Position numbers and translations under genes: made by a program. A DNA stretch of 64,000 nt. Origin: an uncultured Gammaproteobacteria bacterium (lineage in GTDB: Bacteria; Patescibacteriota; Microgenomatia; JAMCZE01). The stretch covers positions 246,973-310,972 of the forward strand of contig CAZXMM010000001.1 in the NCBI GenBank assembly GCA_964641255.1, written 5' to 3'. Below, piece after piece: positions 1 through 57,388 of this stretch; position 1 is the stretch's first letter; every line of letters begins with the position of its first letter. The notes under the pieces were generated by a model that saw nothing but the letters and a program-made list of their open reading frames with translations, searched no databases and had not been told where the DNA came from.

Positions 1-1266
1 AAGTGTTGGGTTTGTTTGCCACGCGTCTCGCAGTTGAGTTTTATTAGTTCCTCCAGAATATTTTGGGAAATAGTCCCATTGCATAAATACTGTAGACAAA
101 ATATGAGTTCCGATACTGGCCAAAAAAAAGATAAAGAAAGTAAATTTGAAGAGTTGGTTTTTAGAAAACCGAATATACACAATTGACAGATATATTATAA
201 AAATTGGCAACGCTTCCAAAAGGTAGCGAGCCTCTAAAGAAGTCCCCCCTACCCAGTAGTGCCAAGTGCTAGCCAGAAGAATAAACAGTCCAAGGGTGCT
301 AAGTAAACTCAAGCTTAGCTGCTTTTCGCTCGGTGAAATTTTGTCGCGAATAGTAAACATTAGTAAGGTTAACAGAAGGATTGGACTGAAAGTAAAAAGA
401 CCCACATTAGGGCTGATAAACAGAGAAATAAACGCCAAGAAAACGTGTGGCCCCAGTCTTTGGATAGATAGAATTATTTCCTCGTGATAACCAAATGGGA
501 TATCAAAAAACCTGAATGTGAGGAAAAAAGGAACATAAGTTAGTAATATTCCAATTGCAAAAAGGGTGGCTTTACTGGTAAAGTTTTTGGATTTTTTTGT
601 TTCTAAGTATAAGTAAATTAACCCAAATGCTCCGTAAAAAATATTGGTCATTCGTATTTGGGCCAATACTCCTAATACTAATCCGCTGATCAAAACCGAG
701 CGCTTGGTTTTTTCTTTGAGAAAAACCCAGAGGAAAAGATTAATAAAAAATACAGAAATGGCGTGTTGCCAATTTGCCTGAGCGGCTGTACTCAAAATAC
801 TTGTAGCGAAAAGATAAACACAGGTAAGGAGTGTGGAGATCGAGCGGCTTTTAGTGAGCTTTAAAATTGAGAAAAATAACAATACCCCAGAAAATGAAGC
901 ATAAAATGCTGCATTTATTTTTCCCACGTATTGAGAGTAATTACTAAAAACCATCGCGTTATCACTAATCTGGGCAACTCCAAAGTAAGCATTTAGGACA
1001 ACGAATAGGGGAACTGAAATGATACCCAAAAGTGGTGACATCTTGGAAAATGCCTGACCAGAGGAGTTGTAAACCAGAATCCCAGAAATGTGGCGCTCGT
1101 TTATGAAATCTCTAAGATTGGTTAAATCTAATCGTTGGTTAAAAATAAGATTGAGAGCGGTGAGATTGGTGGGATAAGAATCAACCGTATCGAAATAGCG
1201 AACCGAAAAGGTAAAGATAAAGAAGGACAAGAAAAATAGGCAACAGGAAATAAGAAAGTTTTTCAT
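1..1266 (-). CDS. Partial polytopic membrane protein, candidate GT-C (ArnT/PMT-like) glycosyltransferase; C-terminus lies beyond window start
   Basis: Minus-strand frame is open from the ATG at 1264-1266 (MKNFLISCCLFFLSFFIFTFSV...) to position 1 with no stop; many hydrophobic segments; absent from the ORF track presumably because it is edge-truncated. Confidence 0.5.
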   Translation of the reverse strand, partial: MKNFLISCCLFFLSFFIFTFSVRYFDTVDSYPTNLTALNLIFNQRLDLTNLRDFINERHISGILVYNSSGQAFSKMSPLLGIISVPLFVVLNAYFGVAQISDNAMVFSNYSQYVGKINAAFYASFSGVLLFFSILKLTKSRSISTLLTCVYLFATSILSTAAQANWQHAISVFFINLFLWVFLKEKTKRSVLISGLVLGVLAQIRMTNIFYGAFGLIYLYLETKKSKNFTSKATLFAIGILLTYVPFFLTFRFFDIPFGYHEEIILSIQRLGPHVFLAFISLFISPNVGLFTFSPILLLTLLMFTIRDKISPSEKQLSLSLLSTLGLFILLASTWHYWVGGTSLEARYLLEALPIFIIYLSIVYIRFSKNQLFKFTFFIFFLASIGTHILSTVFMQWDYFPKYSGGTNKTQLRDAWQTNPTL

Positions 1267-2102
1267 CAGTTGCTAAAATTATCCAGTTTAAAAAGTAATT
1301 TGGTGAACAAGCTTTGGTGCCAAATAAAACCCGGCGGATAATTGATCTCTTTTCCTCCCCACCTTAATTTAAATTCCGTAAATCCTTTCCAGTCTTTTCT
1401 AAGCCTTGGATACCGTTCATCATAAACTCCCTCAAAGTCAAGAAATGTGTACCCATTTTTCTTGAGAACTTTTATTGCGTCGCCCAGACACTGATATGCT
1501 GCCCACTTCTTTCTCCCCTCGGGTGTCGAGAAAGCATAAAAGTAGTGCGCGGTCTTTTTAAAGCCAGTAATCAAAATTCCTGAGACGATACGGTCTTTAT
1601 CATAAGTGAGGAAAATAAAGCTATCGTTACCAAAGGCACTATAAAGGCCACGTATGTCATTGCCCAGTGGCGCCCAAAACTTTCTAGTCCTCGCGTTTTG
1701 TTCCCAATACTGAATAAAAGTTTCAATATCACTTGAGACTGCAGTGCGAAGATTGTATTTCCTTGCCCTTTGAACACTAGTGGGGATGTGCGGCTTTTTA
1801 AGATCTAGAATGAGTGTCTTTGTGGGCAGAAGCGGCCACAGATCGGCAGACCATGGGAGAGCAATACTTTTAGCATTATTTGCTAAGTCTGGTTCGAGTT
1901 TCACAAACAAGGCACGATACTTTTTTGCCATCGCTCTAACACTCTTTTGATCAAGGCTGCTACAGCGTTGTACTTTTATGACACTAAGAAAAGAAAGCAG
2001 GGGGAGTGGTTTAATAAAAACATTAGTAGATCCGATCCTTTCCACCTTCCAACCGATTTGTTCCATGAATTTTGCATACTGTGGAGATTGGCGAATGTCC
2101 AT
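1266..2102 (-). CDS. FemAB-family (FemX-like) aminoacyl-tRNA-dependent peptidoglycan peptidyltransferase, paralog 1
   Basis: 278 aa; shares the FemAB-family pattern (QIGW..., LEPD, KARYNLR, HYFYAFSTPEG...FLDFEGV) by comparison with FemX from memory; sits directly tandem to a second paralog. Confidence 0.65.
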   Translation of the reverse strand: MDIRQSPQYAKFMEQIGWKVERIGSTNVFIKPLPLLSFLSVIKVQRCSSLDQKSVRAMAKKYRALFVKLEPDLANNAKSIALPWSADLWPLLPTKTLILDLKKPHIPTSVQRARKYNLRTAVSSDIETFIQYWEQNARTRKFWAPLGNDIRGLYSAFGNDSFIFLTYDKDRIVSGILITGFKKTAHYFYAFSTPEGRKKWAAYQCLGDAIKVLKKNGYTFLDFEGVYDERYPRLRKDWKGFTEFKLRWGGKEINYPPGFIWHQSLFTKLLFKLDNFSN

Positions 2103-2103
2103 T

Positions 2104-3168
2104 TTAGATATGAATCATTCTCTTAAGTTTAAGAAGCTGCCAACGAAGAGCGTTGCCCATGACAAATAGAGGATAGAGTGGGGAAAGAGGGATATCAATA
2201 GTTACGGGATAGTGAATTTCTTCTCCGCCAAAGCCCTGTTTCACACGGTAGACTCCCCACCACGGGTCACTTTCACTGGGGGTTTCTTTATAGCTACTCC
2301 AGAGATCAAATATTTCACAATCTAGTTTTTTCCCCAGCCTCATGGTTGCAAAATAGAGCAGTTGTGGTGCCATATAAGACCTAAAGGACATATCAAAGCC
2401 GGCGTAGGCATAATAAATAGTGTTTTTGAATTTCAGTAGCATGGCTCCGGCAATTGGCTTGTCTTTGTTTTCCGGGATGTAGGCATTTAATAAATACACT
2501 TGATGAGCAGGACGCAGTGTGTCCCAAAGCGTGGTGTAATAGTTTCTTGAGTGGGCATAGAATCCTTGCCGAGCCTCAGAAGCTTCTAAAAGAATAACAA
2601 ACTTTTCGACTGCTTCTTTTGAGCTCTCCTCCTTAACGATGACCCCTTTTTTAGTAGCTAGTCTGACGTTATAGCGAGTTTTTTCGTGCATTTGTTTAAG
2701 GAGTTCTTCCTCGCTCTTAGTTAAATCAATGACGATTGTATGGCGAGGTAATAACGGAATTACCTCTTGTGCGCCGGGCAGGGTTAGGGGGTTTGTTTTA
2801 GTAAAGTCGGGTTCAATTTGTAAAAAAAGCGCCCTCTCGGCTTTACATACCGCAACAATTTCTCGCAGCTCCCCAGGAGTAGGAAGCGGACTCCTGGGAA
2901 GATACGCAATCGTAAAACTAACTTTGGGGAGTTTGTGAATAGTGATTTGGAAAGCACGTTTACTATTTCCCATCCGGATGACTTTTTTGACGGAGGGAGT
3001 TTTACTGCGAAACTCTCCCCACTGCCACGATTGAGTAATGTGGTGAGACAGAGTGTTGTAATGGTCTTTGTTTTCAAGATGGGAAAGCGTAGGTGTAACT
3101 TTTGGCATACCTATATTATATATGTTTACAAAGACGAGTTTGTGAAATGGACGTTTTTTAAAAACCAA
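2104..3168 (-). CDS. FemAB-family (FemX-like) peptidyltransferase, paralog 2
   Basis: 354 aa; QWGEF, LQIEPDF, TRYNVRLATKKG, YYAYAGFD...FDLWS motifs parallel the paralog 1 and FemX pattern. Confidence 0.65.
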   Translation of the reverse strand: MVFKKRPFHKLVFVNIYNIGMPKVTPTLSHLENKDHYNTLSHHITQSWQWGEFRSKTPSVKKVIRMGNSKRAFQITIHKLPKVSFTIAYLPRSPLPTPGELREIVAVCKAERALFLQIEPDFTKTNPLTLPGAQEVIPLLPRHTIVIDLTKSEEELLKQMHEKTRYNVRLATKKGVIVKEESSKEAVEKFVILLEASEARQGFYAHSRNYYTTLWDTLRPAHQVYLLNAYIPENKDKPIAGAMLLKFKNTIYYAYAGFDMSFRSYMAPQLLYFATMRLGKKLDCEIFDLWSSYKETPSESDPWWGVYRVKQGFGGEEIHYPVTIDIPLSPLYPLFVMGNALRWQLLKLKRMIHI

Positions 3169-3228: not shown

Positions 3229-5571
3229 ATGAGCCTGCAGGATCTTGTGTCATCCGTTGCGGGAAAGTTTACTGCCCAGAAAAACACAGGCCGTGGCTAT
3301 TTAGCAGTTAAAATTTCCTCAACTTCAGTTTTATCAACGACATGGTCGGTGGCAGCTGGTGATGTTAAACTGGGGGCAGTAGCTTATGCTGCTCTAACCG
3401 ATGGTTCCTTTGAAAACCTTCTCCAAACGAGCGACAAAGCTGTCTCTGAATCCCTCTCTAATTCTAGTGTCGAAATTAGTCAGGTCGTGTTTGCGGTGCC
3501 TTTTCACTGGATTAGTGAAGGGAAAATTAGCTCAGTAAAGCTCAAGGATCTTAGGGCAATTTGTAAAGAGCTTGATCTTGTCCCCCTTGGGTATGTTTCT
3601 CTAACCGAGGCACTAGAGAGCTACTATAAAGAAGTAGAAGGGGCGCCGTTAACTGCTATTCTCGTAGGTATTGAGGGGCAAAATTCAACGCTGACAATTT
3701 ACCGAGCGGGTAAGCATTTGGGTACACATTTTTTGGGACTCACTGATTACCACGAGGATGTCTTACCGGAAGGCATTGAACGGGCTCTTAAAAAACTAAA
3801 TGTGGGAGATATTCTTCCCTCTCGGATCATTCTTTATGATGGAAAATCGGATCTAACAGCGGCTGTGGCAAAGGTAACTGCCTATCCTTGGACAGCTAAA
3901 CTACCGTTTCTACATTTTCCTAAGGTAGAAACGGCCTCAGCAGAATTTGTAGTTAAAGCTGTGGCTGTAGCAGGTGCCATGCAGCAGGGGGGAAGGTTTG
4001 TAGCTTTTGATCGAGATGGGGAATCGACTGTTGTTGATGTCCCTGTGGTTTCTGACACACCCCCTGTGGCCGCCAGTGCCTTTGAATCAGTAGAAGTTCC
4101 CTCCTTAAAACAAGTGCTTAAAGAACAGGAAGATGAACTGCTGGAAGTGTCTCCGGAGGAAGCGGGGTTTATGTCAGGTAGCGATCTTAATAATGTTATT
4201 GTTTCAGTCGCTTCACCGACTCCTCTGGCGACGACCTCTAGTTTTACTGAGTTTGCCCCACCGACCCCGAGTCCTAAGATTGCTGGGGAATATACAGCTA
4301 GTAATCATAAAGGAGGATTAAATCTTATGACGAGCTTGAGTGGACTTACCAAAAAAATACCATCATTCTCATTTAAAAAGAAAGCTCTCGACTCCGGAGC
4401 ACGAACGACGCCAGAGATTGGTGGTATCTCTAAGGGTAGAAAGTTCCCCCTCATTGCTTTCCCTATTATTTTTGTTGTGCTGCTCATCGGAGCTACCGGA
4501 GCTCTTGCATACTTTGTACCAAAAGCGGAAATTTTTGTCACTGTGGCGACCGAAAGCTTCTCTCATGATCTTGATGTTACAGTAGTTACGGATCGCGATT
4601 CTACATCTTCTGGCCAGATTCTATTGGGTAGTTACGTGACTACCAGCGAGGTCGGTAGTCGAAGAGCAGTAGCGACGGGAAACAAGCTGGTCGGTGATAG
4701 AGCTAAAGGCACTGTTACGATCTATAATTCAGCGTCGGCTCGGACTTTTCCGGCAGGAACAGTCCTGACGGGCAACGGTTTAAAATTTACTACTGATACC
4801 GAAGTAAGTGTAGCTTCCAGTTCTGGCATTGCTGACCAGATTACGGTGAAAGTGGGGGTGACCGCTGCTGATATTGGCGAAAAATACAATCTTCCCCCAG
4901 GAGTAACGTTCTCGGTTGGTTCCTTACCAACGAGTTCTTATCAAGGGAAAAATGAAGCGGCGTTAGCTGGGGGAAATAGTCACCAGGCAACTGTAGTTAC
5001 TAAAGGGGATCAGGATAGACTTCTTACTACCCTTTCGGGGGAACTGACGGAGCAAGCGCAAAAAGCTCTGGAAGCGAAGCTAGGGGCTAGCGATACCCTT
5101 CTTCCCAAAGCTATTACATCAGCGACAATCAAGAAGAAATTCACTCATGATATTGATGCCGAAGCAGATACCTTTGGTCTTGATTTGACTCTCGACTTTA
5201 AAGGGGTAACCTTTGCTAAGGACGATCTAGTCGAGCTCTTTAAACAAAATTTTCAATCAGCTATTGCAGAAGGGTTTGAACTCTCGAGCGACTCTGTCCA
5301 GTTTGAAGTCAAAGAAGCAAAAACTGACAAAGCCGGGAATATTGTTCTTAAGGTGCATCTTGATGGACAAATTGTCCCCAAGATCGCGGTTGAGCAAATT
5401 GTGACTGATTCTGCAGGAAAAAGCCTGGGCCAGGCAACTAGCTCCATTGCCAAGCTTCCTGGAGTAACTGGAGTTAGAGTAGAAATCAATCCTAAGATCG
5501 CCTCCCCCCTCGCCACTTTTGCGCTTCCCTGGAATAAAAAACACATTTCGGTAGATATTGTCAGAGAATAA
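3229..5571 (+). CDS. Hypothetical 780-aa membrane protein: N-terminal degenerate actin-like (PilM/FtsA-like) domain, central TM helix, large extracytoplasmic C-terminal domain
   Basis: N-terminal ~250 aa has phosphate-1/phosphate-2-like motifs of the actin/Hsp70 fold (YLAVKISSTSV...; AILVGIEGQNSTLTI); TM segment FPLIAFPIIFVVLLIGATGALAYFV around residue 420; Thr/Ser/Val-rich C-terminus; no LPXTG. Confidence 0.4.
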   Translation: MSLQDLVSSVAGKFTAQKNTGRGYLAVKISSTSVLSTTWSVAAGDVKLGAVAYAALTDGSFENLLQTSDKAVSESLSNSSVEISQVVFAVPFHWISEGKISSVKLKDLRAICKELDLVPLGYVSLTEALESYYKEVEGAPLTAILVGIEGQNSTLTIYRAGKHLGTHFLGLTDYHEDVLPEGIERALKKLNVGDILPSRIILYDGKSDLTAAVAKVTAYPWTAKLPFLHFPKVETASAEFVVKAVAVAGAMQQGGRFVAFDRDGESTVVDVPVVSDTPPVAASAFESVEVPSLKQVLKEQEDELLEVSPEEAGFMSGSDLNNVIVSVASPTPLATTSSFTEFAPPTPSPKIAGEYTASNHKGGLNLMTSLSGLTKKIPSFSFKKKALDSGARTTPEIGGISKGRKFPLIAFPIIFVVLLIGATGALAYFVPKAEIFVTVATESFSHDLDVTVVTDRDSTSSGQILLGSYVTTSEVGSRRAVATGNKLVGDRAKGTVTIYNSASARTFPAGTVLTGNGLKFTTDTEVSVASSSGIADQITVKVGVTAADIGEKYNLPPGVTFSVGSLPTSSYQGKNEAALAGGNSHQATVVTKGDQDRLLTTLSGELTEQAQKALEAKLGASDTLLPKAITSATIKKKFTHDIDAEADTFGLDLTLDFKGVTFAKDDLVELFKQNFQSAIAEGFELSSDSVQFEVKEAKTDKAGNIVLKVHLDGQIVPKIAVEQIVTDSAGKSLGQATSSIAKLPGVTGVRVEINPKIASPLATFALPWNKKHISVDIVRE

Positions 5572-5572
5572 T

Positions 5573-6343
5573 ATGGCGCTCTATGTTTATGTTAAGGGCC
5601 AACCCGGCAAATTTAAATTAAAGGCTCCCAAGAGAGTCTCGGCTCGTTCGCGCAAAGTCATGCGTCTTATTTCAGGAACCTGTTTAACACTAGGGCTTCT
5701 TATTGTGGCCCAGGTTGTTTATCCTATTGTGGGTTGGTATCTCTTTGTAGTTCCAAGTGTTGGTTCGGGAATCACTTCGCCTTTGGCGACTACTTTTAGG
5801 CCAGAAACCTCTCCACTTTTCCCAACTTTAGTACGGGCATCAGAGACTCTAGCTGGCGAAACCAATGCGACTCTTTATCAGCCCTCAAGTTGGTTTGTGG
5901 GGACTAAGGTGGTTAAAGCGGTTAATACGTCTCTTAAAGATTACACACTCAGTATTCCCAGGCTAAAGATTAAAGATGCCCATGTGGTAAATGGGGGTGA
6001 AGATCTAAAAAAGAATCTTATCGCTTGGCCAACCTCAGTTATTCCTGGAGCTTACGGTAGCATTATCATCTTTGGTCATTCTTCTCTTCCCCAGCTTAGC
6101 AATCCCGCTAGTTACTCCAGTATGTTTACTCATTTAATGTCTCTTGAAGAAGATGACGAGATTATAGTCAATTATGATGGGCTAACTTATATCTATCGAG
6201 TTGTAGACAAAAAGATCGTAAGTCCTACGGATTTATCCGTACTGGAACAACGTTTTGACGCGCCCTATATTGAACTGATTACGTGCGAACCTCCTGGGAC
6301 TGTTTGGATGAGAGGTGTAGTAAGAGCCCGACTTGTAGACTAA
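5573..6343 (+). CDS. Sortase (transpeptidase)
   Basis: N-terminal TM anchor; catalytic His context IIIFGHSS; TLxTC-type Cys motif ELITCEP; conserved Arg downstream. ATG at 5573 preferred over the TTG at 5558 to avoid overlapping the upstream stop at 5569-5571. Confidence 0.75.
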   Translation: MALYVYVKGQPGKFKLKAPKRVSARSRKVMRLISGTCLTLGLLIVAQVVYPIVGWYLFVVPSVGSGITSPLATTFRPETSPLFPTLVRASETLAGETNATLYQPSSWFVGTKVVKAVNTSLKDYTLSIPRLKIKDAHVVNGGEDLKKNLIAWPTSVIPGAYGSIIIFGHSSLPQLSNPASYSSMFTHLMSLEEDDEIIVNYDGLTYIYRVVDKKIVSPTDLSVLEQRFDAPYIELITCEPPGTVWMRGVVRARLVD

Positions 6344-6345
6344 GT

Positions 6346-6708
6346 ATGATTGTTGGTGTTGATTATGGTCTTAAGCATATAGGACTCGCAACTTCGGAAG
6401 GAGACTTTGCGAGCCCATTAACTGAGTTTGATACTGACACACCAGGGGGAGCAATTACAAAAATTAAAGCAGTGACCCAAGCTTTAGATGTGGAAAAATT
6501 CGTTGTGGGAATTTCCGAAGGAAAAAGCAAGGATCAAGCGCAAAGCTTCGGAAAAACACTTTCCAATATGCTACAATTACCAGTAGAGTTTGTAGATGAA
6601 ACGCTAACAACTTTTGAGGCGGAACGCACTCACAATCGGCGCCAAAACGAAAGTGGGTCACACGCCAGAGCAGCAGCTTTCATCCTGCAACGTTATTTAG
6701 ACAAGTAA
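6346..6708 (+). CDS. ruvX: Holliday-junction resolvase-like YqgF/RuvX (pre-16S rRNA nuclease)
   Basis: MIVGVDYGLKHIGLA N-terminus, DETLTT(F)EA, AAAFILQRYL C-terminus; ATG at 6346 lies after the sortase stop at 6341-6343. Confidence 0.85.
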   Translation: MIVGVDYGLKHIGLATSEGDFASPLTEFDTDTPGGAITKIKAVTQALDVEKFVVGISEGKSKDQAQSFGKTLSNMLQLPVEFVDETLTTFEAERTHNRRQNESGSHARAAAFILQRYLDK

Positions 6709-6715
6709 AGCTAGC

Positions 6716-6901
6716 ATGGCAATTTTTAAACAAGTTATTTCCCCTTTGCAGGCCTGGTTACTTTCCCAAGGGAAATGTGTGGGGTGTGGTATGTCTCTGT
6801 CCAAGGGGATAAAATCAGAAAACAAAGTAACCTGTAAATGTGGTCGAATTTATATTGCCGAGGGACAGTCGTTCAGACGGGCTAGGTTTGAGGAGGTATG
6901 A
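6716..6901 (+). CDS. Small zinc-ribbon protein (CxxC...CxC), hypothetical
   Basis: 61 aa with CVGCG...CKCG; 4-nt ATGA overlap with mltG suggests translational coupling. Confidence 0.4.
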   Translation: MAIFKQVISPLQAWLLSQGKCVGCGMSLSKGIKSENKVTCKCGRIYIAEGQSFRRARFEEV

Positions 6902-7872
6902 AGCTCCGCCCGATAGTTTTCGTAATCGGTGTCGTTATTGTGTTTTGTGGCATAAGTTTGTTGTGGTGGCGTCTTAGTCTGGCTCCGGCTAATGAACGAG
7001 ACACCAAAACAGTAAATTTTTCAGTTGACCGGGGCGATGGGGTTAGAGAAATTGCCAATAAACTTCACGAGGCCGGGTTAATTAAAGATTCTGTAGGTTT
7101 TTTTCTTCTGGTCAAAAAATTGGGAATTGAAAAGAATATTCAAGCTGGGGATTTCCAGCTCTCTCCCTCTTGGGGAGCTAATGATATTGCTCGTGCCTTA
7201 ACAATTGGAACTGAGGACTTGTGGATTACTATTCCAGAAGGCTTACGAAGCGAAGAAATCTTAGCATACCTGCAAAAAACCAATCCTGACCAATGGGAAA
7301 GTACCCTTAGTACCCAAATGGCTTGGAAAAAAGATGAGGGGAGATTGTTCCCAGAAACGTACCGGGTTCCAGCAGGGCACACCCTTGATGAAATTCGAGA
7401 GCTCTTGGTTACGACTTTTGATAAGAGTGTGTCTGAACAAATGAGGACGGACGCCCAAAAAGGTGGTTTCACACTTAAAGACCGTCTGATTGTTGCCTCC
7501 CTTATTGAGCGTGAAGTTAAACACGCTGAGGATCGACCCATTGTAGCGGGGATAATATATAACCGGCTTAAAGAAGATATGCGCCTAGATATTGACGCGA
7601 CGGTTCAGTATGCAATAGGAAATTCTCAGAATGGCTGGTGGAAAAAAAATCTCACTCAGCAGGATTTAGAAGTTGATTCCCCTTACAATACGCGTTTACA
7701 CGGAGGACTACCGCCTACACCGATTTGTAATCCTGGGGTAGCTTCCATTCGGGCGGCTATTTATCCCGCCGAAACAGACTTTCTCTATTATGTTTCCGAT
7801 GCTAACGGGGTTAACCATTATGCCAAAACTCTGGAGGAACACAACAGAAATGTTGCTAAATACCTAAGATAG
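6898..7872 (+). CDS. mltG: Endolytic murein transglycosylase MltG (YceG-like)
   Basis: N-terminal TM; YceG-like signature YNTRLHGGLPPTPICNPG; conserved ruvX-mltG adjacency. Confidence 0.85.
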   Translation: MKLRPIVFVIGVVIVFCGISLLWWRLSLAPANERDTKTVNFSVDRGDGVREIANKLHEAGLIKDSVGFFLLVKKLGIEKNIQAGDFQLSPSWGANDIARALTIGTEDLWITIPEGLRSEEILAYLQKTNPDQWESTLSTQMAWKKDEGRLFPETYRVPAGHTLDEIRELLVTTFDKSVSEQMRTDAQKGGFTLKDRLIVASLIEREVKHAEDRPIVAGIIYNRLKEDMRLDIDATVQYAIGNSQNGWWKKNLTQQDLEVDSPYNTRLHGGLPPTPICNPGVASIRAAIYPAETDFLYYVSDANGVNHYAKTLEEHNRNVAKYLR

Positions 7873-7896
7873 TAGCTAAGTACACAAGGTTGATAA

Positions 7897-9357
7897 ATGA
7901 CTGTTTTTAGGTGCAAAAAACTTGGAAGTTTACTTATTCTGGTTTTAATTATTCTCCTTGGGGCTATCCTTAGACTTTACCGCCTTCCGGAACTGTCAAC
8001 ATTTCGGAGCGATCAGGTAATTGAGCTCACTAGTACTGCAGATATTCTACGGGGTGATTTCACCCTGATTGGGATTAAAACCTCCAACTCAGAAGTAAGA
8101 AATGGAGCAGTGATGTACTACCTGATGGCCCCATTTCTTTTAGCCATGAAGTTTAGCCCACTTGCGGGAGCTCTGGTTCAGATACTGTTGTCGCTGGGAA
8201 CTATCGTCCTAGTGTATGCCACTGCCAAAAAGTTCTTCGTTTCTCATCTTGCTCTCCTTGCCGCTTTTTCCATTGCTACTTCATCACTTCTTGTCCAGTT
8301 TTCAAGGCAAACACTTCTTGCTTATTATCCCTTATTTTTTAGCGCGCTTTTTTTGTGTTTTGCGTTAAAGGTCATTAAAAAAAGCAGTTTACTGACGGTT
8401 GGAATCTTGGGGACACTTTGTGGATTCTCATTACAAGTCCACTATGCCACCCTGGCTCTTTTTGTTTGTGCACTGTTCCTTCCTGCTTTGTTTAAAGCAG
8501 AAAGCCTTAAAGAAACTTTTATCTATTGGGGGAGTCTATTTTTGGGCCTTTTCTTAGGACTAGCACCGATGCTTTTATTTGAAATTCGCAATGAGTTTTT
8601 TAATTCCAAGATGCTGTGGAACTATGTGACTGAATCAGGAGGGGGTCACGAGGGGTTTAACCTGCTTAACTATCTCGTTAATTCTCTGGCTCAATACTTC
8701 TTTGGGGGCTCAGTGATTCTTACCTGTGTTGCAATTATAGTTTTAGTCTATACATTAATGAGGGTACGAAAGAGCTTGGGAACGTTAGAAAAACTTTGTC
8801 TACTTCAGCTCGGCTGTGTTTTCCTTTTTATTATCTTTCTGGTTCACGAAGATATCCCGCACTATCTATTACCAGCCGTCCCCAGTTTGGTGCTCCTAAC
8901 TGGGAGAATATTAGCCAAAACTAAAAATCCCATGCTAAGTAAATTTCTCGCCGTTGGTCTCGCTGTGGTATTTTTTCTTATTAATATTCCTCACTACCGT
9001 TTAGCCGACAGTCACGGCTGGACTATGGCTGAGGGGTGGAATCTAGTAGGAGTGGAGAAAGCGGCAAGAATTATTGCTAGTGATCTTACCGGCGACCCAT
9101 TTAATGTGGCCATGATTGTTGATCAAGAAAATCAAGGACTGCCCCTGCGCTATTTTTTGCACGTTTGGGGGTATAGTCCTCTTCCCGTTGAGTCCTATGA
9201 CAAGGCGCATTATCTTTATGTTCTTGCTGAGCCGGGGACAGTTCTTTCCCAGGTTACGATGTGGGAAGTAACTGCCTTTGGGTCGTATGAAGTGAGTAAA
9301 AGTTGGCCCATTCAAAACGGCTTTATCCTTTATAAACTTGAAAAAGCAGATGACTAG
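7897..9357 (+). CDS. Polytopic membrane protein, GT-C family (ArnT/PMT-like) glycosyltransferase candidate
   Basis: 486 aa, more than 10 predicted TM helices; LRLYRL motif after the first TM helix is typical of GT39/GT83 enzymes. Confidence 0.5.
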   Translation: MTVFRCKKLGSLLILVLIILLGAILRLYRLPELSTFRSDQVIELTSTADILRGDFTLIGIKTSNSEVRNGAVMYYLMAPFLLAMKFSPLAGALVQILLSLGTIVLVYATAKKFFVSHLALLAAFSIATSSLLVQFSRQTLLAYYPLFFSALFLCFALKVIKKSSLLTVGILGTLCGFSLQVHYATLALFVCALFLPALFKAESLKETFIYWGSLFLGLFLGLAPMLLFEIRNEFFNSKMLWNYVTESGGGHEGFNLLNYLVNSLAQYFFGGSVILTCVAIIVLVYTLMRVRKSLGTLEKLCLLQLGCVFLFIIFLVHEDIPHYLLPAVPSLVLLTGRILAKTKNPMLSKFLAVGLAVVFFLINIPHYRLADSHGWTMAEGWNLVGVEKAARIIASDLTGDPFNVAMIVDQENQGLPLRYFLHVWGYSPLPVESYDKAHYLYVLAEPGTVLSQVTMWEVTAFGSYEVSKSWPIQNGFILYKLEKADD

Positions 9358-20451: not shown

Positions 20452-20961
20452 TTAGTCTGTCTTCGCCAGCCACTCCTTAGTAGCCTCAAGACATAATTCT
20501 AAACGGTGGGGAAAATCCTTGTCGGTTAAGTGAATATCAATTGTGTCTTTATGATTAGCCACAAACTTATTGTGGTCGACAATCCAGTCGTCAAGGTATT
20601 GAAACTGATCATATTTTTTGGCTTTCCAGATTTTCACTAACAGTTCTTTAGTAAAATCTAAGCTAATGACAAAGTGCCGGTAGCCAAACTTCTTAAGATT
20701 TTCTTTAGTTTCCGACCAATTACGATCAACACTGATATCTAAGATAAAGCTGCGACTAGAGTTAAGGAGCGCACTAATTCGGGTGTGAGCTCGGCTGTGG
20801 GTTTCCTCCTCGCTGCTAACTAGTAAATCTTCTTTGACCTCGGTACGAATAGCATCTTTATTAAAGATAGGTAGGTTTAGTTGGCAACTCAAGTACGTGG
20901 CAATGGGGGTTTTGGAACTGCCAGGCGGACCAGCAAAAGTGATGCAAAATTTATTTTTCAT
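20452..20961 (-). CDS. Small P-loop NTPase, nucleoside/nucleotide kinase-like (zeta-toxin/AAA_33-like fold), substrate unknown
   Basis: Walker A FAGPPGSSKT; Walker B-like hhhD (FILDIS); 169 aa; encoded antisense, inserted between rpsG and fusA. Confidence 0.5.
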   Translation of the reverse strand: MKNKFCITFAGPPGSSKTPIATYLSCQLNLPIFNKDAIRTEVKEDLLVSSEEETHSRAHTRISALLNSSRSFILDISVDRNWSETKENLKKFGYRHFVISLDFTKELLVKIWKAKKYDQFQYLDDWIVDHNKFVANHKDTIDIHLTDKDFPHRLELCLEATKEWLAKTD

Positions 20962-20976
20962 TTATACTTGTTTTAG

Positions 20977-22536
20977 ATGAAATATCTAACTGCACTTTTC
21001 TTTCCTGCGGCAATTTTACTTTTTTTTACCCTGTCTTTCCACACGGTGACTGACTTTAGTCAAGATTTGGGAAGACATTTACTGATTGGGAAAATAATTA
21101 GAGCTACTGGGGCGATCCCCCAGACTAATTTGCTCTCTTTTACCCACCCCAATTTTCCCTTCACCAATAGTCATTGGTTAGCCGAGGTTGTCTTTTATCT
21201 GCTTAGTAGTCCTCTAAATCTTTTAGGACTCAAGGTAATTATTTTTGTGAGTGCAATGACGCTGACACTTATGACTGCCTGGCAATATTCCAAAAGTCTG
21301 CTAGCAACGGCAGTAGCTTTTTGCCTTCTTGTGCCAGTGCTTTTGGAGCGGACCGATATTCGACCAGAAATATTTTCCTTTCTTTTTGTAGCGGTTTTTA
21401 TGCACCTCTTACTACTTAATAGGACTAAGCTTCTTTTCCTTTTGCCACTTATCGAAATTATTTGGGTCAATACCCACATCTATTTTATTTTAGGGCCAAT
21501 CCTCTGTTTGATCTTTTTTCAAAAGAAATACTGGTATGTTACCTTCCTTACCTGTTTAGCCACAGTGGTTAACCCGAATTTTTTAACCGGAGCGCTGTTC
21601 CCAATTTTCGTGCTGCAAAATTATGGCTACTCGATTGTGGAGAACCAGCAAATTTTCTTTTTACAGCAAGTCACCAGCAACCCAAACATTTGGTACTTTG
21701 AAACAGCCGTGGTTGGCTTAGTGTTAAGCAGCCTTTTTGTGGAATTAAAAAAAATTACGTACCATCACCTCTTACTGGGAGGGTTAATCATTCTCCCTAT
21801 AATCGCCATTCGTAACTTTCCCTTATTTTTTCTCCTGGAACTACCCTTGTTTGCATATATTCTCGCCCACTCTGCTTTACCACTCCGAAGATATGAGAAA
21901 TTTATTTTTTGCTTGGTTCTGGCCCTAACCTTACTTCGGGCTGGCCGGCTTTGGACCAACCAATACTACTTAAGCATCGATTCGGCAAAGCGCTTTGGCT
22001 TCTTCGTCGAAGAGCCCGGAAAAAAAGCTCTAGATTTTATTACTGATCATAAGCTTTTGGGACCGATCCTTAATAATTTTGACATGGGTAGCTATATTGC
22101 CTACCGCTTGTATCCGAGAGAGAAAGTTTTTGTAGATGGCCGACCGGAGGCCTATCCCAAAGAATTTTTCCAAGAAGTCTATATTCCACTCCAGCAAAGC
22201 CCAGAGAATTTTGCTGTGGCTAAGGAACACTTTAAATTTTCTACCATTATTTTTTCCCACCGTGATGGTACCCCTTGGGCGCAACAGTTTCTCTCTTTTA
22301 TTGTTGCCGATCCCGATTTTCGCCTAGTCTATCTCGATAGCTACGCGGTGGTATTTGCTAAAGATACCAATCTCAAAACGGTGGACCCTGATAGTTTATT
22401 AGCAACTAGTGTTAACTATCTAGATAGTTACTATTTGGCTCGTGTGGCTGCAATTTTTGGCTGGGAAGAAATATCGACCAAGCTGGCGGCTCAGTCAATT
22501 AGTAATCGACCAACTAGATCACTGGTTTTTTTCTAG
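20977..22536 (+). CDS. Polytopic membrane protein with C-terminal soluble domain, GT-C-like glycosyltransferase candidate
   Basis: 519 aa; about 12 TM segments in the first ~330 aa, then a hydrophilic domain. Confidence 0.45.
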   Translation: MKYLTALFFPAAILLFFTLSFHTVTDFSQDLGRHLLIGKIIRATGAIPQTNLLSFTHPNFPFTNSHWLAEVVFYLLSSPLNLLGLKVIIFVSAMTLTLMTAWQYSKSLLATAVAFCLLVPVLLERTDIRPEIFSFLFVAVFMHLLLLNRTKLLFLLPLIEIIWVNTHIYFILGPILCLIFFQKKYWYVTFLTCLATVVNPNFLTGALFPIFVLQNYGYSIVENQQIFFLQQVTSNPNIWYFETAVVGLVLSSLFVELKKITYHHLLLGGLIILPIIAIRNFPLFFLLELPLFAYILAHSALPLRRYEKFIFCLVLALTLLRAGRLWTNQYYLSIDSAKRFGFFVEEPGKKALDFITDHKLLGPILNNFDMGSYIAYRLYPREKVFVDGRPEAYPKEFFQEVYIPLQQSPENFAVAKEHFKFSTIIFSHRDGTPWAQQFLSFIVADPDFRLVYLDSYAVVFAKDTNLKTVDPDSLLATSVNYLDSYYLARVAAIFGWEEISTKLAAQSISNRPTRSLVFF

Positions 22537-22610: not shown

Positions 22611-24710
22611 ATGTCTGATGCCAAATCCCGTCTTTATCCTCTAGATCGTATCCGTAACATCGGTATTATTGCTCATATTGATGCTGGTAAGACCACTACT
22701 ACTGAGCGGATCCTTTTTTATACCGGAAAAACCTACAAAATTGGCGATATTGATGATGGTAATACCGTGATGGACTGGATGCCTCAAGAGCGGGAGCGGG
22801 GTATAACTATTGTCTCGGCAGCAACTACGACTTTTTGGAAAGACGTTCGCATCAATATTATTGATACTCCCGGGCACGTGGATTTTACTGCCGAAGTGGA
22901 GCGTTCACTTCGGGTTCTTGATGGGGCAGTAATGGTTTTTGACGGCAAGATGGGGGTGGAGGCCCAGTCAGAAACTGTCTGGCGTCAGGCTGACAAATAT
23001 GACGTTCCTCGAATTTGTTCGGTTAACAAAATCAACGGTATTGGCGGGAGCTTTATCAACTCTTTGAAAGATATTCAAGAAAAGCTCAGCCCCAATGCTG
23101 TAGCCATGATTCTCCCTATTGGACTAGAACACGATCATCGTGGTGTGGTGGATTTACTCACACGCAAGGCCTATACCTACAAAGGCCCAGAAACGGTGGA
23201 ACTGATTGAAGAAGAAATTCCAGCAGACATGAAGACTGAGGTAGAACTTTACCGTACCATGTTGGTTGAAAAAGCTGTCGAAGTCGATGACAAGTTATTG
23301 GAAAAATACCTCGAAGGAAAAGAGCCAACAATTGAAGAGCTTAAGGCTGCTATTCGCAAGGGAACCATCGAAAAGAAATTATTTCCGGTATTCGGTGGGG
23401 ACAATCGGATGTGTACAGTGCGCTTACTTCTTGACGCAATCGTTGACTATCTGCCCACTCCGCTTGACCGCCCAGCTATTACTGGAGTTAACCCTAAAAG
23501 TGGGGAGAGTGAGACGAGAGAACAAAAAACCGATGCTCCTTTTTCTGGACTAGCTTTTAAGATTCAGCTCGATCCTCACGTAGGGAAGCTCTATTATGTT
23601 CGTGTTTATTCGGGAACGATTAAAGCTGGCTCTTATGTTTACAATGCTACTAAAGGTCAACAAGAACGTGTGGGCCGGCTACTATTTATGCACGCTAACG
23701 ATCGAGAAGAGATCCAGGAGGCTTACCCTGGAGAAATCGTGGCTGTTGTGGGGCTTAAAGAAACAAGAACCGGAGATACACTTTCAAACCCTGATCATCC
23801 TATAATTCTTGAAGGGATTTCTTTTGCTGAGCCAGTTATCTCGTTTGCTATCGAGCCAAAGACTAAATCAGACCAAGAAAAAATGGGGTATGCCCTGCAG
23901 CGGGTGATGGAGGAGGACCCCACGATTAGACTTCGGTCCAACAAAGAAACCAATCAGACAATCATTTCTGGTATGGGCGAGTTACATCTTGAAGTCTGGG
24001 TCCGCCGCATGAAAGAAGAAATGGGAGTAGATACGAACGTTGGAGCCCCCCAAGTAGCTTATAAAGAAACAATTACTATGCCAGCCGAGGGTGAAGGGAA
24101 ATATATTCGCCAAACCGGAGGCCGTGGTCAGTATGGTCACGCCATGATTAAGATTGAACCTAAACCCAGGGGCGAGGGGTGGGAATTTATTAATGCCATT
24201 AAAGGTGGGACTGTTCCCGCTGAGTACATTCCCTCAGTAGAAAAGGGGACTAAAGAGTGTGCTAACAATGGGATTCTGGCTGGGTTCCCATTAACTGATA
24301 TTAAAGTTACGTTTTATGACGGCTCTTATCATGATGTGGACTCCAGTGATGTAGCGTTCCAAATTGCCGGATCCATGGCGCTTCAGGATGCCACCAAGAA
24401 AGCCGGACTGGTGCTCCTAGAGCCGATCATGAAGGTGGAAGTAACCACCCCGGACGAATTTATGGGAGATGTCATTGGTGATTTATCCAGCAAGCGGGCC
24501 CAGATTCTCGGTTCCACTAAAAGAGGCAGCGCCACCATTATTATGGCTCTGGTTCCCCTCGCTGAACTGTCGGGATACGCTACCAAACTGCGAAGTATTT
24601 CCCAAGGTCGCGCCAGTTATTACATGGAACCCAGTCATTACGAAGAAACGCCCAGAAATGTCCAGGAGGGAATTGTCGCCAAGTATAGTACTGCTAAAGC
24701 GGGGTCGTAG
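22611..24710 (+). CDS. fusA: Elongation factor G
   Basis: [21 protein letters not shown] GTPase motifs; 699 aa. Confidence 0.97.
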
Positions 24711-26583: not shown

Positions 26584-27687
26584 ATGGAGAGCAAGCATCA
26601 CTACGTTTTAATCATGGCGGGGGGATCAGGAACGAGACTGTATCCTAAATCTCGGGAGAATGCTCCAAAACATCTTTCAAAAATTGTTGGAGACCAGACT
26701 CTTCTTCAACAAACCTTTAAAAGAGTCTCCCAAATAGTCTCAGTAGAAAATATCTATATCTCCACCAATTACAAATACGTTAATCAAATTCTCGAGCAAG
26801 TACCGAAGTTAAAAAAACATCAACTTATTTGTGAACCTGAAAAGAGAAATACCGCCCCAGCGTTAGCTCTAGGAACAAGTGTTATTGCAAGAAGTGACCC
26901 TAAGGCTGTTATTGCTGCAATCTCTTGTGACCACTATGTCCTTAAAGAAAAAAATTTTGTCAATGCGTTTAAACTAGCCTTAGCAGTAATTGAGTCCCAC
27001 CCGGATCGCATTCTAGTACTGGGAATTGAACCAAGCTCCCCCCACACTGGGTACGAATATATTGAGAAAGATGGAATCTTTTGGAAAAAAAATCAAGATC
27101 ACGTTTTTAATGTTAAGCGCTTTGTTGAACGCCCTGCGCATAGGGATATTGCTCAAAAATTTATTGATCAAGGTTACTTATGGAATGCGGGTTATTTCAT
27201 TTTTAGTGCCGAGTGTTTTATGAGTAAGATTAAAGAATTTTTACCAGAAGTCCATGCCGGGTTAGAAGCTATTACTGTCGCTGCAGAGAAAAAAAATTAC
27301 GAGGACGTGCTCAAGGAAGAGTTTTTGAAGTTTTCTGATGCCCAGATTGATAAGGCGGTAATGACTAAAATTGATAATTTAGTCGTGTTACCTGCTGATC
27401 TTGGCTGGTGCGATGTAGGCTCTTGGGATGTGGTCCGGAGTTTAATCGAAGAAAAGAAAAAAGATGAAAACAGCAATTATGCCGATGAAGAATTTATCGC
27501 GGTTGACTCCCACAATGTTACTGTTTTAGGCGATAATAAAGGACAGCTAGTAGCAACCATTGGATTGAGTAATATTACTATCATAAATACAGGAGATGCC
27601 ATTGTGGTAATGGAAAACGGCCGAGGACAGGAAGTTAAAAAGATCGTTGATGAAATTAAAAAAAGAAAGCTAGATTTTCTCTTATAA
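26584..27687 (+). CDS. manC: NDP-sugar pyrophosphorylase, mannose-1-phosphate guanylyltransferase-like
   Basis: LIMAGGSGTRLYPKSR nucleotidyltransferase motif; 367 aa with no C-terminal isomerase domain. Confidence 0.75.
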   Translation: MESKHHYVLIMAGGSGTRLYPKSRENAPKHLSKIVGDQTLLQQTFKRVSQIVSVENIYISTNYKYVNQILEQVPKLKKHQLICEPEKRNTAPALALGTSVIARSDPKAVIAAISCDHYVLKEKNFVNAFKLALAVIESHPDRILVLGIEPSSPHTGYEYIEKDGIFWKKNQDHVFNVKRFVERPAHRDIAQKFIDQGYLWNAGYFIFSAECFMSKIKEFLPEVHAGLEAITVAAEKKNYEDVLKEEFLKFSDAQIDKAVMTKIDNLVVLPADLGWCDVGSWDVVRSLIEEKKKDENSNYADEEFIAVDSHNVTVLGDNKGQLVATIGLSNITIINTGDAIVVMENGRGQEVKKIVDEIKKRKLDFLL

Positions 27688-27692
27688 AGATT

Positions 27693-29051
27693 ATGATTGT
27701 TGACCAAAGTATTTTTAAGGCTTACGACATTCGGGGGATCTATCCCGAGCAAATTAACGCTGAAATGGCCTATGCTATTGGACAGGGATACGCTAGTTAT
27801 GTTAAACCCACGAAACCTGTGGCAGTAGGCTACGATGTTCGCCTTCATTCTCACGAGCTTCAAAAAGAGGTAATCAGGGGATTGATTGACGCTGGTGTCA
27901 GCGTCATTGATGTTGGACTTATCTCAACAGAAATGGTTTATTTTGCTGTGGGCCATTTTGGTTTTGGCGGAGGAATACAGGTTACTGCTTCTCACAATCC
28001 CAAAGAATGGCACGGAATGAAATTCGTCAGAGAGAGTGTTATTCCCCTTTCTGGTGATAATGGAATCAAAGAAATTAAAGAGTTTGTTTTAAAAGGAGAG
28101 AGGATAGTTCTAGGAAAGAAAGGGACTGTAGAGCACCAAAATATTTTGGGAGACTTTTGTAATTATTTGCTCACCTGGATTGATCCAAAGAAACTAAAGC
28201 CGCTAACCATTGTCTATAATCCTAACTTTGGCTTTGCAGGTAAAGTTTTGGAACAACTAGTGGGACTCGGTAAACTTCCTGCAGCAATGATTCCCTTAAA
28301 CGCTGAACCTGATGGAAACTTTCCCAAAGGTAGGCCAGACCCTTTTATCCCAGAAAATAGAGTGGAATTTGCAGCATTAGTAAAAGAGAAGAAAGCCGAC
28401 TTGGGAGTAACATGGGATGCTGATGCTGACCGAGTATTTTTTTGCAGCGATGGAGGAACTTTTATTGAACCATATTTTACTAACGCGATCCTAATCAAGG
28501 CGCTTCTTGCGAAGTATCCAGGAGAAAAGGTTCTATACGATCCCCGCTATGCCTGGGCCCTAATAGATGCTACAGCTGCAGCCGGGGGAAGTTCCTACCT
28601 TGATCGGGTAGGCTATGTTTACATCAAAAGACGGATGCGCCAAGACAATATGGTTTTTTCCGGCGAGTCTAGTGGGCATACCTATTTTCGAGATTTTTGG
28701 TTTTCAGACTCGGGGATGATCCCACTGCTTTTGGTTTGGGAATTGCTGTCGGTAGAAAATAAGACACTCTCACAGTTGGTTAAACCTATTATGCAAAAAT
28801 ATTTTATTTCTGGCGAATTAAATTTTAAGACCGATAAAAAGACAGAAATTATGGCCGAACTCGAAAAAGCCTATTCCAGCACAAAAATTGATCATACAGA
28901 TGGAATTACGCTCGAAAGTACCGACTGGCGAGCTAATGTGCGGGCTTCCAATACCGAGCCTCTCCTGCGATTAAATGTAGAGGCAAGATCCCAAGTAAAA
29001 ATGGAGGAGAAACGTGACGAATTAGTTAGTTTTATCAATCAGAAATCCTAA
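27693..29051 (+). CDS. manB: Phosphomannomutase/phosphoglucomutase
   Basis: Active-site TASHNP; GVTWDADADR metal-binding loop; 452 aa. Confidence 0.8.
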   Translation: MIVDQSIFKAYDIRGIYPEQINAEMAYAIGQGYASYVKPTKPVAVGYDVRLHSHELQKEVIRGLIDAGVSVIDVGLISTEMVYFAVGHFGFGGGIQVTASHNPKEWHGMKFVRESVIPLSGDNGIKEIKEFVLKGERIVLGKKGTVEHQNILGDFCNYLLTWIDPKKLKPLTIVYNPNFGFAGKVLEQLVGLGKLPAAMIPLNAEPDGNFPKGRPDPFIPENRVEFAALVKEKKADLGVTWDADADRVFFCSDGGTFIEPYFTNAILIKALLAKYPGEKVLYDPRYAWALIDATAAAGGSSYLDRVGYVYIKRRMRQDNMVFSGESSGHTYFRDFWFSDSGMIPLLLVWELLSVENKTLSQLVKPIMQKYFISGELNFKTDKKTEIMAELEKAYSSTKIDHTDGITLESTDWRANVRASNTEPLLRLNVEARSQVKMEEKRDELVSFINQKS

Positions 29052-38121: not shown

Positions 38122-39141
38122 ATGAAGATTCTCCAAATTCCCCCATCTTACCGTCTTTCCAAGACCGCTATCCGATTGCTCTCGGAGATTGAGTCTAATA
38201 GTGCCGTTATCAGTGAAATTTCTCTTCCTCTCGAAGTAGAAAGAAATATTCGTCGTCAATCAGTATTAGGCAGTGCTTTGTTCTCAGCTCGTATAGAAGG
38301 AAACACCCTGACGAGAGCCGAGGTAGAAAATTTCACTAAGCTACCTAGAAAAGATCAGCAACAGGTTGAAGTGGAAAATCTTAGTCGGGTAATAGAGAGA
38401 ATTCTATCTCAATGGGCTAATCCCAACAAGAAAATAACCAAGACGGATCTTTTGGATTGGCAGGGGCAGGCGATGCGAAACATTTTGGATACAGAATTCT
38501 CAAGTAGCTTTAGAACTGGCCATGAAGGACTTTTTGATAGAGCCGGGACTCTTTATTATCATGCTCCCCCGCCAGCCTACATCCCCGCTCTTGTTGACGA
38601 GTTACTCCTCTTTGTAAATAGTAAAAAAGAAAAACTCGTTCCCGTTCGAGCTATTCTTGCCCATTTAGTCTTTGAAAAGATTCACCCTTTTGTTGATGGT
38701 AATGGTCGGGTAGGAAGACTTTTACAGCTCGCGATATTAACTAGGGGTGGCTATGCGATGAAAGGACTGGCAGTTATCGAAGAGGAAATTGAGAAACAGC
38801 GCCAGTTATACTACAGAGCTATTGAACGGAGCAATAATTCTGATGCGACCCCCTTTGTTATGCTAATGCTTGAGCTTATTCGTGACGCCTCCCTAAAAGC
38901 AAAGAAGACTCTTCTTGCCAAGAAAAATAATCCTTCCCAACTTGATGTCTTATCTCCCAGGCGTCAAGAGATTGTCCAAATGGTTTACGACCAACGACTT
39001 ATCTCGTTTGATTCTATTCATAGACGTTTTATCAGGATGAGTTCTCGGCAAATTGCCTACGATCTGGAGTTCTTAATAAAACGTGGCTATCTCACCAAGG
39101 TTGGCACTACCCGGGGAGCTCTCTATGCTCCAAAAGAATAA
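38122..39141 (+). CDS. fic: Fic-family adenylyltransferase (AMPylase), class II (internal inhibitory helix), with C-terminal winged-HTH-like domain
   Basis: Canonical Fic motif HPFVDGNGRVGR; inhibitory motif (S/T)xxxE(G/N) = SARIEGN about 140 aa upstream; C-terminal ~70 aa wHTH-like. Confidence 0.85.
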   Translation: MKILQIPPSYRLSKTAIRLLSEIESNSAVISEISLPLEVERNIRRQSVLGSALFSARIEGNTLTRAEVENFTKLPRKDQQQVEVENLSRVIERILSQWANPNKKITKTDLLDWQGQAMRNILDTEFSSSFRTGHEGLFDRAGTLYYHAPPPAYIPALVDELLLFVNSKKEKLVPVRAILAHLVFEKIHPFVDGNGRVGRLLQLAILTRGGYAMKGLAVIEEEIEKQRQLYYRAIERSNNSDATPFVMLMLELIRDASLKAKKTLLAKKNNPSQLDVLSPRRQEIVQMVYDQRLISFDSIHRRFIRMSSRQIAYDLEFLIKRGYLTKVGTTRGALYAPKE

Positions 39142-57192: not shown

Positions 57193-57388
57193 ACCAACAA
57201 AAAAACTCGTCTGTGTAACCAAATACTCACTTTGGGTTACAAGGACGAGTCAAACTCGTGGTACCACCTTGTTTTACCCTCCAAAGCCTTGGCGACGGAG
57301 GGCCTCTCTTGTCTAATTTATACAGTAGACCTCTGTAAAGCTCCCGGGGTGGCCTTTCCTGACAGGAATTCTTCCCGATCAACGCTCA
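57193..57388 (-). promoter_or_regulatory. T-box riboswitch leader upstream of alaS (candidate Ala specifier GCC)
   Basis: Minus strand reads ...CAAGG-UGGUACC-ACGAG-UUUGA-CUCGU-CCUUG..., the canonical antiterminator with 7-nt UGGNACC bulge (+57255..57270); overlapping long terminator hairpin plus U7 (+57199..57250); upstream stem GGAGGG/CCCUCC; possible specifier ...GAAAG-GCC-A. Confidence 0.7.

Follow-up and report, generated by a model that had tools for sequence, protein, structure and literature searches.

Analysis of a 64-kb window (the whole stretch of 64,000 nucleotides considered here; GenBank assembly GCA_964641255.1, contig CAZXMM010000001.1, positions 246,973 to 310,972 of the forward strand), recorded as an uncultured Gammaproteobacteria bacterium and placed by GTDB in Patescibacteriota, Microgenomatia, JAMCZE01, drew our attention to the gene at positions 3229–5571. 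It encodes a 780-amino-acid (aa) membrane protein whose N-terminal domain is, according to its predicted structure, a stripped-down actin fold of the FtsA/PilM type that lacks accessory subdomains and conserved nucleotide-binding loops. The extracytoplasmic domain was modeled as a complete but very remote homologue of gpJ/gp47-type baseplate-wedge proteins, and the gene is directly followed by that of a sortase in almost all syntenic loci. We tentatively propose that the 780-aa protein is a Microgenomates-specific bitopic envelope scaffold working with the housekeeping sortase, an assignment to which we give somewhat less than an even chance. An alignment of 49 members provided the basis for a five-part anatomy, and the gene and its features are located as follows:

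3229..5571, plus strand: whole gene, 780-aa bitopic membrane protein with an ATG start and the stop codon at 5569-5571 (list of open reading frames, ORFs)
3229..3993, plus strand: cytoplasmic minimal actin/ASKHA-fold domain, aa 1-255 (core aa 23-252; aa 1-22 modeled at low confidence)
3994..4449, plus strand: variable Ser/Pro/Val/Ala-rich cytoplasmic linker, aa 256-407 (alignment conservation)
4141..4188, plus strand: linker motif E-x-S-x-E-E-[AL]-G-F-x-x-x-x-D-[VIL], aa 305-320 (alignments)
4375-4540, plus strand: juxtamembrane motifs on both membrane faces, aa 383-437 (conservation in 327 members)
4450..4521, plus strand: single transmembrane (TM) helix, aa 408-431 (hydropathy maximum of 2.6 at aa 408)
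4522..5568, plus strand: extracytoplasmic domain, aa 432-780 (collinear with whole J/gp47/TRI-2 baseplate-wedge proteins)
4678..4998, plus strand: Baseplate_J/GlxA beta-barrel, aa 484-590 (recognized by sequence)

The ORF list and the sequence of the junction (...AGA GAA TAA t ATG GCG CTC TAT) bear out a preliminary description of this DNA, made from the letters alone, which had reported a 780-aa ORF ending 1 nt from the sortase ATG: the TAA at 5569-5571 is separated by a single base from the ATG at 5573. This ATG, and not the TTG at 5558, was taken as the sortase start, because the resulting MALYVYVK matches the conserved N-terminus of the orthologues. A scan of the junction for promoters and terminators yielded nothing above chance. 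The possibility that the ORF is an artefact, i.e. two genes fused by a frameshift, which the preliminary description had itself raised, was ruled out by more than 300 full-length homologues with a common architecture (111 and 279 proteins in two homologue searches, nearly all of them 650–830 aa long and matched end to end) and by the N-domain profile matches given below. The earlier layout of a TM helix followed by a C-terminal outside domain is supported by hydropathy across the homologues, but the 150-aa linker and the Baseplate_J match had been overlooked. As likewise stated earlier, the protein, which ends in ...LPWNKKHISVDIVRE, has no LPXTG, and a scan for sorting signals (an LPXTG-like motif near the C-terminus, then a hydrophobic stretch and a basic tail) found none in it or elsewhere in the window. 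An exact-sequence look-up of the window's 780-aa protein returned no database record, and no description of its family was found in the literature.

Relatives were located by scanning one genome per GTDB species for the motif FLHFPK[VI]E, which was derived from an alignment of 14 sequences because that of 49 sequences held no conserved stretch, so that the locus sample is biased toward members that keep this motif. The scan returned relatives in 138 species, and 80 loci were kept. Across the 84 loci compared by tblastn with the proteins of the window, the gene order is nearly invariant and reads alanyl-tRNA synthetase (AlaRS) – 780-aa-protein gene – sortase – RuvX – YceG/MltG – RpoB. The sortase lies directly downstream in 81 of the 84, by which the adjacency noticed in the window is confirmed for the orthologues, and the distance from stop codon to sortase start is mostly -4, -1 or 0-3 nt; as these short distances persist across the loci, translational coupling appears to be conserved down to 26% protein identity. 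Among the three loci without an adjoining sortase, one (L064) stops at the contig end, another (L017) shows no match within the 1.7 kb downstream, and the third (L045) represents a clear absence. The neighboring genes in the window are:

5573..6343, plus strand: sortase, 256 aa, with the tail MALYVYVK, one TM helix and the catalytic domain (Pfam Sortase, E 1e-21)
6346..6708, plus strand: RuvX/YqgF, 2 nt past the sortase stop and in the same operon; downstream in most loci (Pfam RuvX, E 5e-23)
6898..7872, plus strand: YceG/MltG-family glycan-strand terminase, the next conserved gene in the loci (Pfam YceG, E 2e-81)
2104-3168 and 1266-2102, minus strand: two FemAB-family genes, divergent and upstream (Pfam FemAB, E 2e-31 and E 8e-5, the latter just under the gathering score)

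Members of the FemAB family build peptidoglycan cross-bridges. The pair adjoins the gene only in the window's nearest relatives (L002-L008 and L022), whereas AlaRS takes the upstream position in the other loci and is displaced in the window to 55042-57222 on the minus strand. In L045, a 1.13-Mb contig, RuvX comes next after the gene, without a sortase in between, and AlaRS is inverted upstream (6001-8700), which makes this locus a natural test case in which the sortase has either moved or been lost. In Gottesmanbacteria, a 1.5-kb gap after the sortase is filled by a 419-aa cytoplasmic-looking enzyme that is not a sortase substrate. No RuvX was found there by tblastn, and a conserved ORF of about 419 aa takes its position, in L020 (8760-10019), L024, L038, L039, L041, L043, L044, L047, L052, L060 and L082, several of which are titled Gottesmanbacteria while the rest carry placeholder titles; judged by eye, it is a putative nucleoside or AMP phosphorylase.

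The sortase of the window keeps the catalytic His (GHS), Cys (TC-x-PPG) and Arg, as do the orthologous sortases across the loci, and it falls below the cut-off of every class-specific NCBIfam sortase model, with the generic TIGR01076 alone being passed. In about 45 of 79 orthologues (~57%), the TM helix is preceded by a cytoplasmic peptide of the form M-x-L-Y-R-Y-V-K (aa 1-8; window 5573-5596), while sortases of the Davies- and Amesbacteria type lack this tail and start directly at the TM helix. Such a conserved short cytoplasmic tail is unusual for a sortase and could be a candidate docking peptide. Docking of the LYRYVK tail on the actin-fold domain was examined but not adopted, given that the tail is missing in ~40% of lineages and showed no convincing covariation with residues of the 780-aa protein.

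For the N-terminal domain, an AlphaFold2 model built on a 64-sequence alignment reached a predicted local distance difference test score (pLDDT) of 91 and a predicted template modeling score (pTM) of 0.85. The model consists of two consecutive beta-beta-beta-alpha-beta-alpha-beta-alpha units, i.e. the ASKHA/actin core without additions, in which both subdomain 1C (the SHS2 insert) and subdomain 2B are absent. Compared with known folds, FtsA scored best, with PilM and Hsp70-like proteins nearly equal. It was the predicted structure only that revealed this fold, as all assignment at the sequence level failed: Pfam and NCBIfam, including the FtsA, SHS2 and PilM profiles, gave no match for the domain in the 780-aa protein or the 49 members, a PDB profile search with the domain alone returned nothing significant (first actin-fold entry PilM at E 0.68, collinear), and hhalign against an approximate E. 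coli FtsA sequence assigned a probability of 6% while pairing LAVKISSTSV with VGLEIGTAKV. A search of 1.84 billion cluster representatives (clusters of 50% identity) with the N-domain profile retrieved 1,649 proteins at E<=1e-3, 1,416 of them also at E<=1e-10, and no tail of weak FtsA or PilM matches. The domain occupied residues 1-250 in all 150 matches listed, most of these proteins being 680-820 aa long. Based on the missing tail and the constant position of the domain, we consider these proteins a separate, deeply diverged actin-fold family of fixed architecture.

FtsA carries the phosphate-1 motif [DE]-x-G-[ST] and the phosphate-2 motif D-x-G-G-G-T. Among 224 members, the corresponding phosphate-1 site reads K/F/L/E at position 28 and K/S/E at position 30 with no Gly, and the phosphate-2 site (positions 147-151) reads E/G, L/I, D/G, K/G and a variable residue without GGG, in a provisional register that was set from strand order, secondary structure and the insignificant hhalign pairing with the approximate FtsA sequence. 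From these columns we infer a nucleotide-independent scaffold domain. Together with the AlphaFold2 model, they support what had been read from the sequence at the outset, namely an FtsA/PilM-type actin fold with degenerate nucleotide motifs.

A membrane-spanning FtsA analogue, of which the actin fold would bind FtsZ or a cytoskeletal or divisome partner while the ectodomain acts on septal wall synthesis, and for which the adjacent sortase would be incidental or would merely share the septal location, nevertheless appears doubtful. In FtsA, late divisome proteins and the FtsZ tail are bound by surfaces of subdomains 1C/SHS2 and 2B, and it is precisely these subdomains that the N-domain lacks. 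No FtsA, SHS2 or PilM profile was matched in the 49 members, PilM and Hsp70-like proteins score nearly as well as FtsA, and neither ftsZ nor ftsQ was ever seen as a neighbor in the 84 loci. The idea of a membrane-spanning FtsA relative put forward in the preliminary description holds for the fold, but fails for the 1C/SHS2 subdomain, the ATP motifs, the division and cell wall (dcw) gene context and the sequence match.

The linker that connects the actin fold with the membrane is flexible. Its mean column conservation of 0.18-0.20, compared with 0.50 in the flanking domains, is accompanied by lengths that differ widely among homologues, and the segment of about 150 aa looks disordered. Embedded in it, residues G313-F314 of the linker motif do not vary in either alignment (49 and 14 members); in 74 proteins from the genome loci, F314 is conserved to 100% and G313 to 98-100%. 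A single TM helix occupies the corresponding position in every homologue checked, and Lys and Arg are more frequent on its N-terminal side. As the protein has no signal peptide, the N-domain fold is a cytoplasmic one and the Lys/Arg bias lies N-terminal to the helix, an N-in/C-out topology is the probable arrangement. In the motif frequencies of 327 members, [WY](0.83)-[FY](0.80)-x-P-[KR](0.79)-A(0.82) stands at the outer face of the membrane and extends into aa 432-437, with L-P-K-[FLI]...P motifs found at the inner face. The conservation of motifs on both faces indicates that the membrane-spanning region is more than a simple anchor.

Outside the membrane, the ectodomain (349 aa) was modeled by AlphaFold2 with a pLDDT of 95. 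Residues 488-582 match Pfam Baseplate_J (PF04865) at E 2.4e-6, with 27.5 bits exceeding the gathering cut-off of 21.1, and the same family was matched in 46 of 49 members, while the 'GlxA beta barrel' family was found in 5 of 49. The family profile also matches diffocin TRI-2 at E 4e-7. In Foldseek, 337-381 columns of the ectodomain were aligned at probability 1.0 to 8kea, 8v3w, 9euf, 7kh1 and 9ki1, so that wedge proteins of 346-416 aa are matched over their whole length, although the TM-scores (template modeling scores) remain at ~0.2 because the relative orientations of the domains differ. NCBI names several members 'baseplate J/gp47 family protein'. The gene is nevertheless regarded as cellular and not as a phage gene, since no relative of the 780-aa protein was found among IMG/VR viral contigs and 50,697 phage genomes searched by tblastn with the ectodomain gave no match. 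Genes for gpI/gp7, gp25, hub, sheath, tube or fibers were not found near the gene, neither in the window nor in the 84 loci, and the neighborhood is a housekeeping one.

Baseplate-wedge proteins oligomerize and carry tail fibers. A surface platform exapted from the wedge of a contractile injection system or phage would accordingly be conceivable, in which a ring or triplex holds fibers or adhesins, possibly linked by the sortase, for host attachment, and the actin fold anchors or regulates it from inside. Both properties of the wedge proteins would fit this reading, as would the collinearity of the whole ectodomain with J/gp47-type proteins and the conserved coupling to the sortase. A further argument comes from the lifestyle of bacteria of the candidate phyla radiation (CPR), episymbiosis being commonly inferred for them and established for those in cultivation (PMC6744442 and a further abstract). 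Against it stand the lack of gpI, gp25, hub, sheath or fiber genes nearby and the remoteness of the homology with its low TM-scores and different domain orientations, and we rate the surface platform as rather unlikely, somewhat below the FtsA analogue.

That the protein is a PilM-PilN(-PilO) fusion and forms the alignment subcomplex for type IV pili or a competence machine had also been suggested at first and is now largely refuted and highly improbable. PilN, PilO, GspL and GspM are absent from both structural match lists of the ectodomain, which contain wedge proteins and the GlxA barrel instead. The ORFs scanned in the window and the 84 syntenic loci contain no pilus genes (pilB/gspE, pilC/gspF or pilins were looked for), nor ftsA/ftsZ or phage genes, and for the complete Microgenomates genome Ch65, one sortase and, separately, a single type IV pilus locus with its own PilM are reported (PMC7143001). 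Finally, a prophage or tailocin baseplate gene or a mis-assembled chimera, despite the Baseplate_J match above the gathering score and the NCBI baseplate names, is refuted by synteny and distribution to the point of having practically no chance, given the constant place of the gene within a housekeeping operon throughout a superphylum, the TM helix and actin-fold domain unknown in baseplate proteins, the lack of phage genes nearby and of relatives in the viral collections, and the same architecture in >1,000 independent assemblies.

Concerning its distribution, the family of the 780-aa protein appears to be lineage-wide in Microgenomates. Where the names of the records found in the locus scan are informative, they point to Ames-, Davies-, Gottesman-, Shapiro- or Chisholmbacteria or to 'Microgenomates', the rest being generic (Patescibacteria group, 'bacterium'), and the profile search added Woese-, Collier- and Roizmanbacteria as well as one metagenome-assembled genome labeled Parcubacteria. 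The titles 'uncultured Gammaproteobacteria', 'Pseudomonadales' and, in one case, 'Bathyarchaeia' evidently reflect placeholder names or mis-binning; L005, L006, L008, L009, L029 and others show clear Microgenomates gene content and synteny under such misleading titles. The homologue search with the sortase returned Microgenomates sortases only. According to Méheust et al. 2019 (PMC6744442), nearly all Microgenomates have a sortase, and its occurrence in other CPR groups is patchy, which matches the distribution of the 780-aa protein's family, and the 35 families enriched in Microgenomates are mostly hypothetical, 14 of them being membrane proteins.

Within the envelope scaffold that we favor, the 780-aa protein and the sortase would be made in fixed proportion and might act as a complex at the interface of membrane and wall. 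The TM/juxtamembrane region, the wedge-like ectodomain or both may bind and position the sortase, or stabilize it in the manner of SafA, and the ectodomain could oligomerize as wedge proteins do. The nucleotide-free actin-fold domain would then serve as a cytoplasmic docking or oligomerization platform, and may link the anchoring of surface proteins by the sortase to a landmark in the cytoplasm, in the way that PilM-PilN, GspL or FtsA-FtsN relay assembly information through the membrane. SafA provides a precedent for a sortase-linked membrane protein that binds via an exoplasmic juxtamembrane motif (PMC9282373) and supports the reading as a complex. The same reading draws on the close gene pairing with a catalytically intact sortase and on the parallel distributions of sortase and the 780-aa protein's family.

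Several observations weigh against such a scaffold. Neither the window nor the surrounding 6 kb in any of the 84 loci contains a gene for a sortase substrate, as recognized by its C-terminal sorting signal, and the complete locus L045 carries the gene with no sortase downstream. The LYRYVK tail of the sortase is missing in ~40% of lineages and does not covary with the 780-aa protein. Membership in an operon is by itself weak evidence, as the members of alaS ... ruvX-mltG-rpoBC are not obviously related in function. A bolder version of the scaffold, to which we assign a small chance only, holds that an ancestor of Microgenomates captured an ancient contractile-injection wedge protein, displayed it on the surface and wired it to a nucleotide-free actin fold. 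With the sortase, it would form a new envelope machine with no counterpart in cultured bacteria, such as an oligomeric platform on which covalently anchored surface fibers for host attachment are assembled or held. This version overlaps with the exapted surface platform considered above.

These findings are of interest because most of the lineage-specific membrane proteins of Microgenomates, a huge uncultured branch of the CPR, are annotated as 'hypothetical' (PMC6744442), and the database label of the present family, where there is any, is that of a phage baseplate protein and thus misleading for a cellular gene. The FtsA/PilM-like domain leads to a concrete model for how sortase action may be organized in Microgenomates. 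The family adds an actin fold invisible to sequence profiles and shows the baseplate-wedge fold in use on a cell, anchored in its membrane. Should the complex prove real, the SafA precedent would be extended to a far more elaborate transmembrane form.

Several other genes of the window were noted in passing. Between ORFs of the size of rpsL/rpsG and an ORF of EF-G size (22611-24710), flanks that were judged by size and position only, an odd insertion into the normally compact translation operon comprises a 519-aa polytopic membrane ORF without a Pfam family (20977-22536, plus strand) and, in divergent orientation, a 169-aa ORF whose N-terminus resembles a P-loop (GPPGSSKT; 20452-20961, minus strand). 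The former is one of two membrane proteins resembling glycosyltransferases of the GT-C type, the other lying at 7897-9357 (PMT_2). A Fic/DOC-family gene (38122-39141, plus strand; E 2e-16) is located directly upstream of SecY in the ribosomal-protein cluster. Between an EF-Tu-sized ORF and the rplC block, a sugar nucleotidyltransferase with a ManC/GMP beta-helix domain is paired with a gene of the phosphoglucomutase/phosphomannomutase family (26584-29051, plus strand); the two would supply activated sugars for envelope glycosylation. On the minus strand, 58089-60904 encodes FtsK and then a 210-aa HTH_25 and Glucodextran_B protein of RodZ-like architecture, a pair that also occurs near locus L001. 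Lastly, a 293-aa protein with PEGA and bacterial SH3 domains, encoded beside RNase Y (51660-52541, plus strand), is probably a wall-associated surface protein.

Among known systems, no described protein was found to unite an actin fold with a TM helix and a wedge-like ectodomain, and none to couple such a protein to a sortase. By sequence and fold, the ectodomain falls within the Baseplate_J superfamily, but it is not part of any contractile system: it is collinear with P2 gpJ, Mu gp47, diffocin TRI-2 CD1371 and the T4 gp6 family, the central beta-barrel being recognizable by sequence, yet these wedge proteins reside in clusters for contractile tails, tailocins or type VI secretion systems, whereas the 780-aa protein is membrane-anchored, fused to an actin fold and devoid of other baseplate genes. 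GlxA of Streptomyces lividans, which contains the related barrel (PF21110), is a copper radical oxidase composed of barrel and propeller, while the 780-aa protein has no oxidase domain and carries the barrel within a wedge-like module.

With regard to the sortase partnership, SafA of Actinobacteria attaches to sortase by means of the exoplasmic motif FPW and protects it against signal peptidase, and it is likewise bitopic, N-in/C-out and encoded beside the housekeeping sortase across a phylum (PMC9282373). Its FPW lies at the same place as [WY]-[FY]-x-P-K-A in the 780-aa protein, a likeness that may be coincidental. However, SafA comprises 52 aa, has no other domains and is encoded downstream of srtA, in contrast to the two large domains and the upstream position of the 780-aa protein, and no homology between them is detectable.

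Closest in overall layout are PilM-PilN, GspL/EpsL and FtsA. The N-domain shares its actin fold with PilM, but in its core of ~230 aa there is no counterpart of the accessory subdomain by which PilM forms its groove for PilN. PilN, PilO and GspL display a ferredoxin-like fold outside the membrane instead of a baseplate-wedge-like one, and PilM-PilN and GspL/EpsL are found among pilus or secretion genes, a context missing here, where the partner gene is that of the sortase. The actin/ASKHA fold is also common to FtsA and the N-domain, whereas the 1C (SHS2) and 2B subdomains and the conserved ATP loops are found in FtsA only. In addition, FtsA is a peripheral protein held by a C-terminal amphipathic membrane-targeting helix, whereas the 780-aa protein has a true TM helix (hydropathy 2.6) and, beyond it, a folded ectodomain of 349 aa, and the dcw context (ftsQ-ftsA-ftsZ) and profile membership of FtsA contrast with the order alaS-X-srt-ruvX-mltG, where X is the 780-aa-protein gene, and the lack of any profile match. 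In the best reading, the 780-aa protein thus resembles PilM-PilN/GspL or FtsA in its architecture, but belongs to neither family.

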